Source: a virus. From it: a DNA stretch of 64,000 nt. The translations under genes were made by a program, and so were the position numbers. This document shows positions 2,738 through 56,785 of this stretch, piece by piece (position 1 is the stretch's first letter; each line of letters opens with the position of its first letter). The stretch spans positions 91,227-155,226 of the IMG/VR virus record IMGVR_UViG_3300036772_000367; one strand, given 5' to 3'. The notes beneath the pieces are model-generated. The model was not told the DNA's origin and made no database searches. It worked only from the letters and a program-made list of their open reading frames with translations.

Positions 2738-3178
2738 GTGGACGTGGAGACTTTTGCTCTGGTGCACGGAGATCTGATGGTGGACAGTTCCGGTCAACTG
2801 TTGACTTACTCGGGTCCTAATCGTATTCGCCAGGATCTTCAATTGGCGCTCTCAGAGGAGTACGGAGCAGACCATTTCCACCCGAAGTGGGGATCTATCG
2901 TCAAGAGCTACATCGGCAATCCCATCACACCCAGCCTTGAGCTGCTTGTTCAAGCCGAAGTAAATCGGGTAGTGCAGAACTACATAACTCTTCAACAATC
3001 CTCGGTACTGCGTAGCACTACTTTTGATATTGCCGGAGTATTTGATACCTCGGATGTCGTACAAAGTGTAGGGCCACTGCGCGTGTCGACCGCTTACGAC
3101 ACGATTTACATCTCTGCCACTTTGACTACCGTGGATCGTCAGACAATCACCATTACCCAGCAGGTGAGCAATGCCTAG
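2738..3178 (+). CDS. Baseplate wedge protein, gp25/GPW-like
   Basis: 146 aa with a QDL..AL....G...FHPKWGS motif, an AAGGAG RBS, and baseplate J directly downstream. Confidence 0.75.
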   Translation: MDVETFALVHGDLMVDSSGQLLTYSGPNRIRQDLQLALSEEYGADHFHPKWGSIVKSYIGNPITPSLELLVQAEVNRVVQNYITLQQSSVLRSTTFDIAGVFDTSDVVQSVGPLRVSTAYDTIYISATLTTVDRQTITITQQVSNA

Positions 3179-46317: not shown

Positions 46318-47199
46318 GTGGGGGACTCGGTGACCGCCGTGCCGAAGGACCCTGCCATCTCAGAGTTGCGCGAATTGTTCCGCAACCTCTCTGAGCTACG
46401 CATTGCTTACGAGACATCCGGGGTAGAGGAAATTATTTCTCCGCTCGGTAATCGTTGGTCCCTATGGGACATTGACTATCTCTACAAGAAAAGTCAAGAG
46501 CTTCTGACTCCACGGCAGCGGCAAGCCATCAGCTTGTGCCTTGTGCATAACATGCGTGAACGGCAGGCAGCCGAGATTATGGGAGTGTCATCCACTAATC
46601 CCGTGATGATGTATGCCACTCTGGGTATTCGGCGACTGTTGGATATGATCGAGGAAGGCCGCTTCGAACGCTTTCATCGACAAGATTCTCACGTCTACCG
46701 ACAGCAGTTGCAGACGCAGACCATGTTGCGACTCGCCGAGCGAGTTCAGACCTGCCTCCGGATCGAGAAATATACCGATTGCTGGCTGTTTCCCATTCTG
46801 CCGGGACAGCAACCCCGTATCCGGGTGAAGACCCCCACCACGTCCTCAGGCTTCTTGTACGTCGATGTGGTCCGGTTGGTCTACGAGATTGATCAGGGCA
46901 GACTGCCGCAGGACTGCTATCTGGTGCATGTCGCCGAACCACCGAGGCTGGCCTGTGTGCGTCCTGACCACATGGAGGTTCGTCTCAGCGAGAGGCGCAA
47001 GCTCACCAACTCGATGTTGCTCAACTACTACCGCCGATCCGAAAAGGAGAATCATGGGACAACTGCGCAACGGAGTCTTTTTGCCTCTGGAGAAGATCGC
47101 GGACGAGCTGATCTTCGGCAGCTTGCGCGGAATTACCAGTCAGAGCGAGAAGAAGGATATTCTCACGCCATGGAAGGAAATGGATCGGAGGTCGCGTGA
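46318..47199 (+). CDS. Sigma-70 region-4-like regulator fused to a degenerate HNH domain
   Basis: LTPRQRQAI.L.....MRERQAAEIMGVS; C-terminal DCWLF...RLVYE...G.LP....H......CVRPDH. Confidence 0.65.
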   Translation: MGDSVTAVPKDPAISELRELFRNLSELRIAYETSGVEEIISPLGNRWSLWDIDYLYKKSQELLTPRQRQAISLCLVHNMRERQAAEIMGVSSTNPVMMYATLGIRRLLDMIEEGRFERFHRQDSHVYRQQLQTQTMLRLAERVQTCLRIEKYTDCWLFPILPGQQPRIRVKTPTTSSGFLYVDVVRLVYEIDQGRLPQDCYLVHVAEPPRLACVRPDHMEVRLSERRKLTNSMLLNYYRRSEKENHGTTAQRSLFASGEDRGRADLRQLARNYQSEREEGYSHAMEGNGSEVA

Positions 47200-51413: not shown

Positions 51414-53477
51414 ATGACTCGGTTTAAGGTCGAACGGTTCCCTCGCGGCTCCGAGACGGAGAAGCTGCATATTCTGCACCCGCAGGAAGGTTCGATCGGC
51501 TCTCTTCAGTACGTCCGGCATCCTGATCACCTCCAGGTCGAGATGCTGAGCGTGAAGCGCGAGCACCAGGGCCATGGGTACGCCAGCCAGCTCATGGATG
51601 AACTTCAGCGGCGCAATCCGGGTGTTCCCCTCGATCATGGTGAGCGCACCGACCCCGGTCAGGACTGGTGGGATTCCTACTCGCAGGGCAAGGACGTCGC
51701 CCACGGCCGTACGATGGCAGCCCTCGGTGCTGCGGTGAACATCTCGTGGGATCACCAAGACGAGGATCCTGCGACATGGAGTGAGGATTACCAGCGTACC
51801 GCGCGAGACCGTCCCCACGGGCTTGCTGTCAACCAAGCCCAAGAGGCTGCTCGGCGCCAGGTCCCCACCATGAACATGAACCTGGGGTCACCCAACGATG
51901 CGACTCACGCTGTCCAGCACATGATGCGGCGAGGTGGTCATCCAGATGCCGACGAAGCCTTCGTCATGAAGCACCCTCATCTTGAATGGGGACAGTCGCA
52001 GGCGTTCGTCAGTGACGGACAACCGGGTATCGCTCTACACCCGAGCCGGTGGGACTACGGCACCGCCGCGCACGAGGTGGCGCATCATTTGCACGAACAC
52101 GAACTCGGTCATCATCCGACCAGTGATGAAGAGGCACACGGGCCCGACTTCGTCCGGCACTATCAGAATGTTCTAGGCGACTTTGGACGCGATGCTGCCC
52201 AGATACTGGGAGATACTTACCACGACTCTCTTCGGCGACTTCAGCACGAAGGTATACTTCGTGCTGCTGGTTATTCGGATTACATAAAAGATGCGTGGAA
52301 TCGACGTGCTGAGCAGTATCCAGATGATGCTGATTCCTATCGAGAGCGCGCTCAGCGTGAGCACGATTATGAGAGCAGTTTGCCTGGACACCATGTTGGT
52401 GATTCTTGGGAACGGCCGGAAATCGGTTGGGTACGCACTGAGGAAATGGGCCGGTTTCGGGAACATGCTGGAACTCAGCATAGTCAGAGTCGCGCGGCTG
52501 TCGATGCTTTGGCTGATGACTTTCGTGATGGCGTCGGTTGGCACGCTCCATTGCATTTGTACTATAATGCCGGCACACAACGAGCTTCCCTAGGAGAAGG
52601 TAATCATCGCCTGAAGGCTGCTGAAGAAGCCGGAGTGTCGCATGTGCCGGTCATCATGCACCCGCACACTCGGTATGGCGGGGATATGCCCTCAGGTGGA
52701 TTTATGCCTCTAGCAGAGCGCAAACCACCCCCTCCTTCAACGGATGCCTACCATCCCTCTCACGTGGTGCCGGCACGGTGGATGCACGGTTATGATCCAA
52801 GCGCCACATATGCCTTCCTGCGTCAGGCGAGTAAGTGGACTTTTGAGCATTTTCAACCGGGATCCATGAGCCACCGAATGTTCGGCGGCCCGTCAGAGGA
52901 TCCACGTCGGCACATGGTCGAGTACGACGTGCGTCCGGAGCAGAAGATCAAGTTTGGTGCTCCGGATAGCTTCGGTGGCTTCGGCCGTGTTGAACGCAAG
53001 GGCGGTCCTGAAGTCGTTCAGCGGATGCGAGAGGCTATCTTCGCCCAACACCCCGGACACACCGAATGGACTCCGCAGGACGAGCCTCAGACCCGAGCAC
53101 CACGCAAGCCTCGGGTGTACTACCACGGCACCACCGTCCCGGACGTGACGCACGTGCTGCCGGCCAACGAACATGGTCAGGGTGTGGTTTTTCCCCATGT
53201 GACCGACCCCGACTACGCCTACGCTACGAGTGACCACGGCGATGCGTGGAACTACGCCGAGAAGGCATGGAGCGCTTCGGCCCACGGTCGACCTCGGGTC
53301 TACCAAGTCAAGCCCATCGGCGGGACTCGACACGTAGAGACCGATCCGCATGATGATCAGTATGGTCAATCGCGGGGCAACTACGAGAACGATTATCGTT
53401 CTCCGCATGGTTGGCAAGTCGTGAAGGAAATGCCCTTCCCGAAGCACATGGGTGACCCGAAGGACTGGGAAAACTAA
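51414..53477 (+). CDS. Polyvalent protein: GNAT + zincin (HExxH) + ParB-like + Arr-type ADP-ribosyltransferase
   Basis: VKREHQGHGYAS (GNAT motif A); HEVAHH...HGPDF; GEGNHRL.AA...VPV; YYHGT...YAT...RPRVYQVKP.G..E.DP. Confidence 0.75.
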   Translation: MTRFKVERFPRGSETEKLHILHPQEGSIGSLQYVRHPDHLQVEMLSVKREHQGHGYASQLMDELQRRNPGVPLDHGERTDPGQDWWDSYSQGKDVAHGRTMAALGAAVNISWDHQDEDPATWSEDYQRTARDRPHGLAVNQAQEAARRQVPTMNMNLGSPNDATHAVQHMMRRGGHPDADEAFVMKHPHLEWGQSQAFVSDGQPGIALHPSRWDYGTAAHEVAHHLHEHELGHHPTSDEEAHGPDFVRHYQNVLGDFGRDAAQILGDTYHDSLRRLQHEGILRAAGYSDYIKDAWNRRAEQYPDDADSYRERAQREHDYESSLPGHHVGDSWERPEIGWVRTEEMGRFREHAGTQHSQSRAAVDALADDFRDGVGWHAPLHLYYNAGTQRASLGEGNHRLKAAEEAGVSHVPVIMHPHTRYGGDMPSGGFMPLAERKPPPPSTDAYHPSHVVPARWMHGYDPSATYAFLRQASKWTFEHFQPGSMSHRMFGGPSEDPRRHMVEYDVRPEQKIKFGAPDSFGGFGRVERKGGPEVVQRMREAIFAQHPGHTEWTPQDEPQTRAPRKPRVYYHGTTVPDVTHVLPANEHGQGVVFPHVTDPDYAYATSDHGDAWNYAEKAWSASAHGRPRVYQVKPIGGTRHVETDPHDDQYGQSRGNYENDYRSPHGWQVVKEMPFPKHMGDPKDWEN

Positions 53478-56400
53478 TGAACAACATCGCCGAGGGTCAC
53501 GGTGTCCCCCATCTTTATGTGCAGGGCGATCCCTACCAGTTTGACTACGCTCGCAACACAGAGAAGGCTCCGCGTACTCAGGGATTTGGTCAAGATATCG
53601 AACCGCATGGTCGGTATCTCACTGCCCACCATCCTCACGGCAATTACGGTGATCGATGGGAATTTGGTACCCATACCTTCAGCCAACCTTTGCACATGTC
53701 TTTCGGTGGTAACTATGGAACCGAGAGCAACTGGAAGAATCGACTTTCAGCTCAGTACGATGGCAAGAAGGGGAAGCCGCTATCTCGTGCGCTGTTGAAG
53801 GACGGTTATGACGGTATCGTCACTCACGACGAAGACGGTCCGCGTGAGATCGTGGACTTGAGTCCGCTGCGGAAACAAGCAGATCTATCGCCGTTCACGT
53901 TTTCACATGAGGAAACGCAGACCGGTGGGATGAAGCATCCGAGGCAAGTAGATCTGCACGCACATCATCCGGACTCGGCCGAGCCAGTGGGAACGTTGCG
54001 ATACTTCCCACCCAAGCGGCGCGGTGGTGTCATGGATGTCGACAACATCACTACCCACCACCCTGGGGCTGGTTCGGCCCTGCTCAACGAGATGGAAACG
54101 CGCCATCCCGGTTCGCGCACCAACTTCCTGTGGAGCGTCAAGCGCAACAACAACAATCCCGATGTCACCGGGCATGGTGCAGGTAATGCTGGTAAGCCCA
54201 CCGACTGGGACGCCATCCATCCCACTCTCGCGCCGGAGGTCCATCGGGGGCTTACCTTGACACTGCCCTCGCACTCGGCGCGCGTCGTGAACTCGGCGGC
54301 ACCGAAGCACGAGCATCTCGCCGAGCTGAACTCCGCCCTGGCTCATTCTTCGCTAGGTACCCACTGGACTGAGAATGAGCGATCCGCTCGGCAGTTCGCG
54401 CAGAATGCCGTTTCTGACTACCGCACCGACGTTCCGGTAGTGGTGCACGCCAAGACACCTGCTATCAAGGATCTGGAGACCCGCCAGAACGAGTTGTACC
54501 GAGGTGGCGTCTTTCCCTACGGAGATAGCCATAGCCCAGAGAACGAGGTTCCGATCCGGAAGAATCGCACTGTCGCCGTCACCGGCATCTCCTGGCGCCC
54601 GGACGCGGTCCACCCTGATGCCGACGAGAACGGCTGGGTTCATCACGCCTACGACGAGCCGATGCAGCACAGGGCCAAGCGATTTGCTCCGACGCAACGG
54701 CTGTTCGGTCCCACGCAGGGATTGGATCATCGACTATTTGATGGTGATCACTTGAAGTCGGACGTGCGGGACTACATCCTGACCACGCTCGGAGGCTTCT
54801 GGAATCCGTTGTATGGCGACGGCTGGGTGGGTTGGTCCAAGGTCTACTTCGCCGGGTCCGAGGCGTCGGAGTGGACGAGCCCAGAACTGGAGGGCAACAA
54901 CGACTTCGACGTGCTGATCGGAGTCAACTACGACGAGGCCCGCAAGGACGTGCCGGGGTTCCGCACGATGAGTGATCAGGAGATCACCGACCTGTTGAAC
55001 AAGCAGCTCCGTGTCCTGGATGAGCAGACGGCGTTTGTCTGGATTCCAGTCAGCAATGAGACTGTAAACTATGATTCATGGGAAAACCCGGACGTAAACG
55101 ATCAAGACCTGACGAAGTCTATGACGAACTCGTCCGTCTCTATGTCGAAGAGGACTGGACAGCGACTGCCATCGCAAAATATCTTGGATTCGAAACAAGC
55201 AATGTCTGCTACCACTTGGAACGAGCAGGAATCTCTCGAAGTCAATCCCGTGGGAAAGACACGCCTCGGAAGCCTCCCAGAACGAAATGCAAGAATTGTG
55301 GAGAGGCGGTCAACTTCTCCAGTTCATATGAGTCATCAGCAGCAAAATCCGGGCGATGTCCAGCATGTCAGGCGTTCTATCTACGAGACCGTCATTTACG
55401 AGTCAACTACGGGATCACGACACAGCAGTTTGACTCCATCCTTGCCGAGCAAGGTGGAGGATGTGGGATATGCGGACGGAATGACATTCGATTCGCAATC
55501 GACCATGACCACCGCTGCTGTCCAGGGAAACGAACGTGCGGAAAATGCCTCAGAGGGATTCTTTGCACTCGCTGCAACCAAGCGATCGCCTATCTCGGTG
55601 AAACCAATCTTCATGCCGCAAGCGGCTGGGTGGACCGTCGAATCACCGCCTCCAGCGCCTGATGGTTGGAACTATATTGGTCCGTTCAATGGGACTTTCT
55701 ACGTCAACCACGACTCCTGGGACATCCGCCGGATCAAGCCGTACGCGGCCTACGACGTCACCGATGACCAGTGGGCTGTGAAGCCCCCTCATCTGCCCGC
55801 CTGGGGTCTGAAGGACTTCCCCGAGGGCAAAGCTCTGGAGCAGGAAGCGCGAGCCGTCTCCGCCTATGTCAGGGCTGTTCTCGCTCTACCGGAGCCCTAT
55901 CGGTCTCAGCAGGGTTACGCGCTGTGGAACCACTTGCACTCCGACCGGTCGCGTGCCTTCAGCGACCAGGGCGAGGGCTGGTGGGATCCCGGGAACGTCC
56001 TGGAGAAGTGGTTGGACCAGGAAGGTCTATGGGACCAGCTGGTCAAGGTCATGGTGGACGTCCGTGCTCACCCGGAGAAGTTGAACTCCCCCTCGGATTG
56101 GTCGAATCTGCCCAAGACCGCCATGCCGTGGCATTTTCAGCATGGCGAAACGGCTCGCGATCACCCAGAGATTAAGTCTGTGCGGCATGCGGGTTTCGCA
56201 GGTTATGTCGGAGAAAGTCCTGAGCGTCAGGAAGACTACGGCTACGAGAAGCCCGAGCATGAGTTCGACGAGGATGCCTGGAACGATGTCTCTCCTGAAC
56301 CGACGCACGAGGAGCGACAGCACTACGACGAGCACGACGACTATCCGGAGTCCTATCACGATCGACACGATCGTGCCTACCAGGAACACGTTGATCGCAA

Positions 56401-56785
56401 GACAGCCGAAGACAAGCCCGACCACGAAGATGATGCTCTTCATGATTTCATTGGCGAGCACGGCACGAACTACCATTTTTGGCAGAACAGGGCGAATCTG
56501 GGAATGGTCAATATCAAGGATCGTCCCGTGTATGCCACGCAGAGCCATGTGAGCCAACGGCACATCGACAAGTATCACCATGACCCGACTGCCGCTCCAC
56601 ACGCACCGGGATACGGGGACTACGTGGGCAACGAAGCACCCATGTTCGTGACGCACGAGGGGCGCCTGCACGCCATCGAAGGCCATCACCGTGTCGCCGC
56701 AGCTCTCCAGCGGGGTGACGACAAGATCCACGCGTGGCACTACGATGCGGATCGTCACGGCCTGCCGACCGAGGACGACGAGTAA
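53477..56785 (+). CDS. Polyvalent protein: ART-like, GNAT-like, nucleotidyltransferase (Pol-beta fold) and ParB-like domains
   Basis: GYDGIV; GAGSALL; VHRGL..GTHWT...ENEV (ART-like); AGSEAS...DFDVL (NTase); IEGHHRVAAA (ParB). Confidence 0.7.
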   Translation: MNNIAEGHGVPHLYVQGDPYQFDYARNTEKAPRTQGFGQDIEPHGRYLTAHHPHGNYGDRWEFGTHTFSQPLHMSFGGNYGTESNWKNRLSAQYDGKKGKPLSRALLKDGYDGIVTHDEDGPREIVDLSPLRKQADLSPFTFSHEETQTGGMKHPRQVDLHAHHPDSAEPVGTLRYFPPKRRGGVMDVDNITTHHPGAGSALLNEMETRHPGSRTNFLWSVKRNNNNPDVTGHGAGNAGKPTDWDAIHPTLAPEVHRGLTLTLPSHSARVVNSAAPKHEHLAELNSALAHSSLGTHWTENERSARQFAQNAVSDYRTDVPVVVHAKTPAIKDLETRQNELYRGGVFPYGDSHSPENEVPIRKNRTVAVTGISWRPDAVHPDADENGWVHHAYDEPMQHRAKRFAPTQRLFGPTQGLDHRLFDGDHLKSDVRDYILTTLGGFWNPLYGDGWVGWSKVYFAGSEASEWTSPELEGNNDFDVLIGVNYDEARKDVPGFRTMSDQEITDLLNKQLRVLDEQTAFVWIPVSNETVNYDSWENPDVNDQDLTKSMTNSSVSMSKRTGQRLPSQNILDSKQAMSATTWNEQESLEVNPVGKTRLGSLPERNARIVERRSTSPVHMSHQQQNPGDVQHVRRSIYETVIYESTTGSRHSSLTPSLPSKVEDVGYADGMTFDSQSTMTTAAVQGNERAENASEGFFALAATKRSPISVKPIFMPQAAGWTVESPPPAPDGWNYIGPFNGTFYVNHDSWDIRRIKPYAAYDVTDDQWAVKPPHLPAWGLKDFPEGKALEQEARAVSAYVRAVLALPEPYRSQQGYALWNHLHSDRSRAFSDQGEGWWDPGNVLEKWLDQEGLWDQLVKVMVDVRAHPEKLNSPSDWSNLPKTAMPWHFQHGETARDHPEIKSVRHAGFAGYVGESPERQEDYGYEKPEHEFDEDAWNDVSPEPTHEERQHYDEHDDYPESYHDRHDRAYQEHVDRKTAEDKPDHEDDALHDFIGEHGTNYHFWQNRANLGMVNIKDRPVYATQSHVSQRHIDKYHHDPTAAPHAPGYGDYVGNEAPMFVTHEGRLHAIEGHHRVAAALQRGDDKIHAWHYDADRHGLPTEDDE
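55078..55662 (+). CDS. Endonuclease VII-family HNH homing endonuclease nested in an alternate frame
   Basis: N-terminal HTH; CKNC/CPAC; YGIT...QGGGCGICG...IDHDH.CC....CGKC.RGILC..CN. TAAACT lies 7 nt before the ATG (leaderless-type -10). Confidence 0.85.
   Translation: MGKPGRKRSRPDEVYDELVRLYVEEDWTATAIAKYLGFETSNVCYHLERAGISRSQSRGKDTPRKPPRTKCKNCGEAVNFSSSYESSAAKSGRCPACQAFYLRDRHLRVNYGITTQQFDSILAEQGGGCGICGRNDIRFAIDHDHRCCPGKRTCGKCLRGILCTRCNQAIAYLGETNLHAASGWVDRRITASSA

Follow-up and report, generated by a model that had tools for sequence, protein, structure and literature searches.

An Endonuclease VII-type gene nested out of frame in an open polyvalent-type gene of an uncultivated phage: a probable homing element without splicing

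How can a gene for a homing endonuclease lie in the middle of another gene if it is neither spliced out nor breaks that gene in two? Homing endonuclease genes are thought to persist within genes by being removed through splicing, as parts of introns or inteins, or by splitting the gene that they occupy. The stretch of DNA that we analysed (hereafter the window, 64,000 nucleotides, which are the final 64 kb of the complete 155,226-bp IMG/VR virus record IMGVR_UViG_3300036772_000367) holds a locus that appears to follow neither route. Here, a gene for a polyvalent-type phage protein is interrupted, within a nucleotidyltransferase-like module, by an insert that is filled almost completely by an Endonuclease VII (Endo VII) gene in another reading frame, while the host frame stays open. 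We consider it likely, on the evidence of sequence comparisons and structure prediction, that the insert is a spliceless, overprinted homing-endonuclease element whose host frame is read through as a disordered loop. This reading is carried by the anatomy of the locus, by purifying selection on the nuclease frame, by the avoidance of stops in the host frame, by a patchy and incongruent phylogeny and by the lack of features of inteins or introns. An initial annotation of the window had put forward two explanations, and the first of them, dual coding in which the insert is tolerated as a disordered loop, is upheld by seven open copies, by a predicted local distance difference test score (pLDDT) of ~30 for the insert and by substitutions that track the nuclease frame.

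The junctions of the insert were defined, as the initial annotation had advised, by alignment with insert-free homologs. In the closest of these (P0003/L004), ...IPV runs directly into GG.EFGPF, and the protein is 84% identical downstream; the limits obtained in this way are given in Table 1 together with the other features of the locus. The open reading frame (ORF) of the nuclease takes up all of the insert except 26 nt before it and 1 nt after it. Its ATG is located within the host codons TCA-TGG, and its TGA stop falls in the final 4 nt of the insert. The GC content of the insert is ~0.49-0.51 compared with ~0.6 in the flanks. As had been noticed from the letters, the host ORF passes without a stop through a long Ser/Thr-rich segment (13.7% Ser and 8.8% Thr, as against 4.9% and 5.1% in the remaining protein).

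Table 1. Features of the interrupted host gene and its insert (positions in the window)
Feature	Positions	Strand	Remarks
Host gene	53477..56785	+	1102-aa polyvalent-type multidomain phage protein; single ORF open across the insert (ORF list)
N-terminal half of nucleotidyltransferase-like module	54674..55051	+	G-S ... D-x-D motif; final strand FVWIPV; mapped by tblastn and BLASTP
Mobile insert (putative)	55052..55663	+	612 nt = 204 host codons; junctions from alignment with insert-free L004
TAAACT, candidate -10 box (TANNNT) of a putative leaderless transcript of the nuclease	55065..55070	+	7 nt before the ATG
Nested nuclease gene	55078..55662	+	194 aa; frame +2 relative to host (frame 3 of host)
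C-terminal half of module	55664..56119	+	GW..IGPF..YVN, IKPYAAYD and GEGW.D motifs

The nested gene encodes a complete protein of the type that had been proposed from the sequence. It matches the Pfam family Endonuclease_7 (PF02945; E 2e-12, 47.1 bits against a cut-off of 23.6) as well as PHROG endonuclease VII families (E 6e-20), and its architecture comprises an N-terminal helix-turn-helix (HTH), a CxxC...CxxC zinc ribbon and an Endonuclease VII/HNH core with DHDH...N. Residues D142, H143, D144 and N167 and the cysteine columns are invariant across the copies of the nuclease, and the HTH gives weak matches in orthologs. Against PDB sequences, the nuclease profile matched only an HTH-like designed repeat, and not T4 Endo VII. 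A search of 5.8 billion protein clusters returned no separately called protein of 106-340 aa close to the nuclease at E <= 1e-20, a strict cut-off that leaves more distant free-standing relatives outside. Scans of IMG/VR and the JGI metagenomes with the nuclease profile found distant relatives only, except for one copy (L171, see below). In none of the related contigs had the gene callers reported the nested nuclease; they gave the host ORF only. No nuclease domains were found in the other same-strand nested ORFs of the window. Some tblastn matches of the nuclease in phage genomes fall under two annotated features at once, namely in Pseudomonas phage ventosus (H24), in T7-like phages (H9, H10 and H13) and in Rhodococcus phages (H11 and H12); examples are 'endonuclease VII' with 'DNA polymerase family A' and 'endonuclease VII' with 'internal virion protein', which may be overlapping or nested genes or mere neighbours.

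Inserts of this kind are rare among the relatives of the host gene. Of 175 homologs with both halves of the module, 163 lack any insert, 10 carry one of 180-204 aa, and the two others have extra segments of 80 and 28 aa. DNA was compared for six copies (the window, L001, L002, L003, L085 and L086), to which L171 adds a seventh; the insert-bearing alleles P0031, P0092, P0205 and P0137 were compared at the protein level only. In all seven copies, which come from independent assemblies, an Endo VII ORF of 179-233 aa, complete from ATG to stop, lies at the same site and in frame +2 relative to the host. None of them contains a host-frame stop within the insert, and the third frame contains 1-8. 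The copy L171 (positions 1185-1877, JGI metagenome contig Ga0193731_1002563) was discovered by a frame-blind DNA scan of metagenomes with the nuclease profile; it is a more distant allele, with a nested Endo VII of ~230 aa that is 36% identical, and its host frame is open over 785 codons.

The pattern of substitutions indicates which of the two frames is under constraint. In codon alignments of the six copies, differences counted in the nuclease frame affect 48-65% of third positions, 20-45% of first positions and 16-39% of second positions. Moreover, the nucleases are 41-72% identical between copies and the host-frame peptides 24-45%. Given that third positions of the nuclease frame vary most and that the peptide is poorly conserved, these alignments indicate that the nuclease is a genuine gene, subject to purifying selection, and that the peptide read in the host frame is an unconstrained by-product.

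Nevertheless, the host frame has stayed open. When the six nuclease genes were shuffled synonymously, the probability of a host frame without stops was 0.07, 0.04, 0.38, 0.14, 0.59 and 0.13, and recoding with host codon usage gave 0.18, 0.045, 0.80, 0.19, 0.0004 and 0.0034; the products are ~1e-5 and ~2e-9, respectively, although the copies share ancestry and multiplied probabilities overstate their independence, even if third positions are near saturation. For L171, synonymous shuffling gave 0.24. IMG/VR and the JGI metagenomes also supplied 135 distinct nuclease relatives for comparison, in which the equivalent frame averages 3.3 stops per 100 codons (median of 6 stops in relatives of at least 150 aa). 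It is open in two of them only, one being L171, with the same nested layout, and the other a 142-aa ORF in 69%-GC DNA. The shuffling check suggested by the initial annotation has therefore a divided outcome: the open frame of the window taken alone is not improbable, whereas the set of seven copies, seen against the 135 relatives, appears far beyond chance.

We then asked what the read-through product would look like. A model of the module with the insert was built with AlphaFold2 (AF2) from a 28-sequence alignment. Both halves of the module pack together with pLDDT >90, and the insert (model residues 136-309, pLDDT ~30) is placed between the strand FVWIPV and the strand starting GPF..YVN. The host-frame reading of the insert is thus predicted to be a Ser/Thr-rich, unconserved and disordered loop. 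The G, S and D-x-D of the module are invariant (alignment A3), and its C-terminal half is highly conserved, with 56-86% identity. No Pfam family was matched by the module, while weak structural matches (Z 4.4-5.1) that span the insert were obtained to the minimal nucleotidyltransferases (MNT) 1no5, 1ylq and 2rff, to the HEPN-MNT complex 8xeh and to pol beta. The motif and these weak matches make a Pol-beta-like (MNT-type) nucleotidyltransferase plausible, if weakly supported, and the region that the initial annotation had described as a split nucleotidyltransferase can be called nucleotidyltransferase-like.

The distribution of the insert is that of a mobile element. A host tree of 166 alleles, made from the flanking module, requires 10 changes to account for the 10 alleles with an insert, compared with 9.8 for shuffled labels, and several of these alleles have insert-free sisters with a support of 96-99. 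The nuclease tree joins the window with L002 (99/99) and L001 with L085 (98/97), while the host flanks join the window with L001 (97/96). The spread of carriers over the host tree, together with a nuclease tree that disagrees with it, suggests homing between alleles.

The same loop has also received other occupants. In L168 (positions 2814-3071; P0038), the insert at this site is 80 codons long and retains just the 85 codons at the C-terminal end of the nuclease gene, and the host frame is open; the catalytic core is intact and the HTH and zinc ribbon are lost by 5' truncation. As only the last 85 nuclease codons remain while the host frame is still open, this insert probably arose from the cassette by deletion. 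In two other contigs, L093 (positions 1861-2496, a 166 kb IMG/VR contig) and L169 (positions 1975-2319), an unrelated NUMOD4 + HNH_3 endonuclease gene sits in the loop and divides the host gene into two ORFs. It overlaps both halves, the upstream one at its end and the downstream one at its start. Because two unrelated endonuclease genes occupy this loop and several database proteins start or stop at this junction, we regard it as a permissive hot spot for endonuclease genes that is exploited in two ways, by read-through and by gene splitting. The HNH_3 ORF of L169 is short as called (114 aa), with NUMOD4-like sequence in the 'intergenic' DNA upstream, and may be decaying or miscalled. A 2322-aa protein (P0126) has the 28-aa extra segment at the same junction (between residues 1104 and 1138), which could be a remnant of an insert or a variation of the loop.

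The initial annotation had pointed to TAAACT, 7 nt before the ATG, as a candidate leaderless promoter, and a TANNNT box is found at exactly this spacing in five of the seven copies (TAAACT twice, TAGGAT, TACCAT and, in L171, TAGAAT). The T, the A and the final T of the box are kept and its middle is variable; the background of TANNNT in host genes is 0-0.004 per position. A scan with the E. coli-type sigma-70 consensus did not flag TAAACT and found no -35 match, a result that we regard as uninformative for actinobacterial-type promoters. Taken together, the box and its spacing suggest that the nuclease probably has a leaderless transcript of its own.

Could the insert be removed before the host protein is complete? 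Group I introns of phages often carry HNH ORFs, and a GC content below that of the flanks would also suit a self-splicing intron (group I or II), another form of RNA-level removal or a ribosomal bypass that carries the endonuclease ORF. However, cmscan with Rfam 15 over positions 54700-56000 gave no match at E <= 1, and only 27 nt of the insert lie outside the ORF. Moreover, the host frame is open and the length of the insert is a multiple of three in seven copies and ten protein-level alleles, properties for which neither splicing nor bypass would select. We therefore hold these explanations, among them the ribosomal bypass or cryptic splicing that the initial annotation had kept as its alternative, to be highly improbable. 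A non-canonical intein, in which protein splicing would remove the insert and the Endo VII gene would be nested out of frame, likewise requires an open host frame. The same nuclease family has indeed been reported in the same relative frame (frame 3) in actinophage inteins of terminase, polymerase, capsid and ThyX (bioRxiv 10.1101/2025.01.02.630785). Here, though, a splicing domain of ~130 aa would not fit, because the insert has only nine host codons before the nuclease ORF and none behind it. Conserved splice-junction residues are also missing: the first residue of the insert is variable among copies (S, R, K, R...), and its last residue with the +1 residue is D then G, E then G or N then G, never H-N and then C, S or T. 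With no Hint, intein or other domain matched by Pfam in the host frame of the insert, and with a peptide that diverges between copies and is predicted to be disordered, an intein is extremely improbable, in agreement with the earlier remark that intein motifs are absent and that little room is left for a group I intron. We also considered that a frameshift might fuse the nuclease to the N-terminal part of the host protein, and rejected this, as a stop precedes the ATG in the nuclease frame of every copy (a TGA one codon before the ATG in the window, and a stop 73 codons upstream in L085).

Other alternatives accept the nested gene and dispute how it is maintained. The open frame might be an arrival filter, in which a cassette that was stop-free by chance was inherited through shared ancestry without continuing selection, the region downstream perhaps being dispensable. 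Several points count in this direction and against a frame kept open by selection: the open frame of the window copy alone is only mildly unlikely (P 0.07-0.18), that of L002 is expected (P 0.38-0.80), and six of the seven copies were reached through host proteins that had each been called as one ORF, so that an open frame was a precondition for finding them. The read-through element is further weakened by the two copies out of seven that have no TANNNT box, by the lack of a conserved Shine-Dalgarno sequence among the copies and by a nucleotidyltransferase assignment that depends on a motif and weak structural matches (Z ~5). The worry about ascertainment is countered by the frame-blind DNA scans with the nuclease, in which no copy with a broken host frame was found, and by the lack of a close, separately called relative at the E-value cut-off given above. 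An arrival filter is, in addition, hard to reconcile with 48-65% third-position difference and yet 0 stops in ~1,360 codons of seven lineages, with the high conservation of the downstream half of the module and with the open frame of the truncated remnant, and we judge it unlikely. A nuclease domesticated by the phage, with vertical inheritance and a role in, for example, recombination, packaging or anti-host functions, would account for purifying selection on the nuclease frame, and Endo VII homologs do have housekeeping roles in some phages. Against this, the carriers make up only ~6% of alleles and are placed on the host tree as random labels would be, the conflict between the nuclease and host trees is strongly supported, and a truncated remnant exists; domestication is thus very unlikely.

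The read-through element that we prefer to these alternatives would work as follows. A cassette consisting of nearly nothing but the HTH/zinc-ribbon/Endo VII-type HNH gene would insert, in a multiple of three bases, into the loop between two beta-strands of the nucleotidyltransferase-like module of the phage polyvalent protein. Ribosomes on the host gene would read across the cassette in the host frame and add ~200 unconstrained, disordered residues, after which the module would resume and still fold. Selection would purge copies that gain a host-frame stop. The nuclease, probably translated from its own leaderless transcript started by the TANNNT box 7 nt upstream of the ATG, would probably cut insert-free alleles in co-infecting relatives, and repair would copy the cassette in, which amounts to homing.

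The host gene itself belongs to a large and diverse group. Protein searches returned hundreds of polyvalent-type multidomain homologs with GNAT, ParB_N, Arr-ms, NUDIX or ART-PolyVal domains. Against GenBank phages, the gene had no megablast match, and tblastn gave short partial matches only, in Gordonia and Streptomyces phages. It follows another polyvalent-type gene (51414-53477) with an ATGA overlap, which suggests translational coupling; that upstream gene has weak matches to GNAT and Arr-ms (ADP-ribosyltransferase). Elsewhere in the window, an ORF at 46865-47389 matches DUF7236 (E 3e-12) and overlaps a longer ORF with a GTG start (46318-47199), in another frame and within the 3' part of the latter, whose call is probably spurious or mis-started.

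Nucleases of this kind systematically escape annotation, because gene callers report the host ORF only. The locus offers several handles for experiments, including a conserved candidate internal promoter, natural empty alleles as potential cleavage targets, a truncated remnant and a competing endonuclease that splits the same loop. More broadly, and only as a tentative proposal that we think somewhat less probable than its opposite, read-through overprinting may be a general, selection-maintained lifestyle of homing endonucleases within genes and not be confined to methylases, with a leaderless promoter of its own (TANNNT at -7) and a single loop that hosts two families and two solutions. If so, such cassettes could be precursors of inteins with out-of-frame endonucleases, and they could supply new disordered loops in phage proteins.

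The initial annotation regarded the strategy of this element as a different, new one. The strategy seems real, but it has a published precedent in DNA methylases of mycobacteriophages, whose ShiLan domain (Arsenault, Gosselin & Gogarten, Genes 2025, PMC11855218) is an insertion without host-frame stops. The third frame of this insertion encodes an HNH protein of 195 aa; the start codon comes after the first 18 bp, and the stop codon is found in the final four bases. That insertion has no intein or intron features, is predicted to form a loop and has a homing-like distribution, and leaderless initiation was proposed for its nuclease. The same study describes a second case, Pacc40, with background in Gosselin et al. 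2023 (PMC9957025), and a genome announcement mentions another methylase with an out-of-frame HNH (PMC12613952). Our locus shares with ShiLan and Pacc40 the in-frame insertion without host-frame stops, the lack of intein and intron signatures and the predicted unstructured loop, the ~195-aa HNH ORF in frame 3 with a start ~20 nt into the insert and a stop within the last 4 nt, the sporadic, homing-like distribution and the lack of a Shine-Dalgarno sequence. It differs in its host gene, a nucleotidyltransferase-like module of a polyvalent protein instead of a methylase, and in its carriers, which are uncultivated viruses of ~150 kb. In addition, its nuclease, as compared by family description, is of the Endo VII type (PF02945) with an N-terminal HTH whereas that of ShiLan is an I-HmuI-like HNH, and it starts with ATG and not GTG. 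What our analysis adds to the ShiLan work are the statistics of stop avoidance, the conserved TANNNT box and a second nuclease family in the same loop.

Two other systems are close to this element. The Endo VII-like endonucleases that lie in frame 3 within actinophage inteins, described in the preprint cited above, have in common with it the nuclease family, the relative frame and a host frame that is open across the nuclease ORF. However, these inteins keep flanking splicing domains and are protein-spliced, while here we see no splicing domain and no conserved junction residues. The mobE gene in nrdA of phage Aeh1 is reported to be a free-standing homing endonuclease gene that splits its host gene (Gibb & Edgell 2007; review PMC2988022). 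Both are selfish HNH genes in a coding gene without an intron or intein; unlike at the Aeh1 locus, the host gene of the window is unsplit, and it is the HNH_3 gene of L093 and L169 that splits its host.

In the literature, we found no description of this host gene or of the element. A third route beside splicing and splitting, in which translation runs straight through the endonuclease gene in another frame, is until now known only as a computational proposal for the methylases of mycobacteriophages. The present locus would extend this route to another gene, another nuclease family and uncultivated large phages, with quantitative evidence for selection that keeps the frame open. Thus, the layout has been known since 2025, and new here are the host gene, an Endo VII-type nuclease without an intein and its uncultivated ~150-kb phage carriers.

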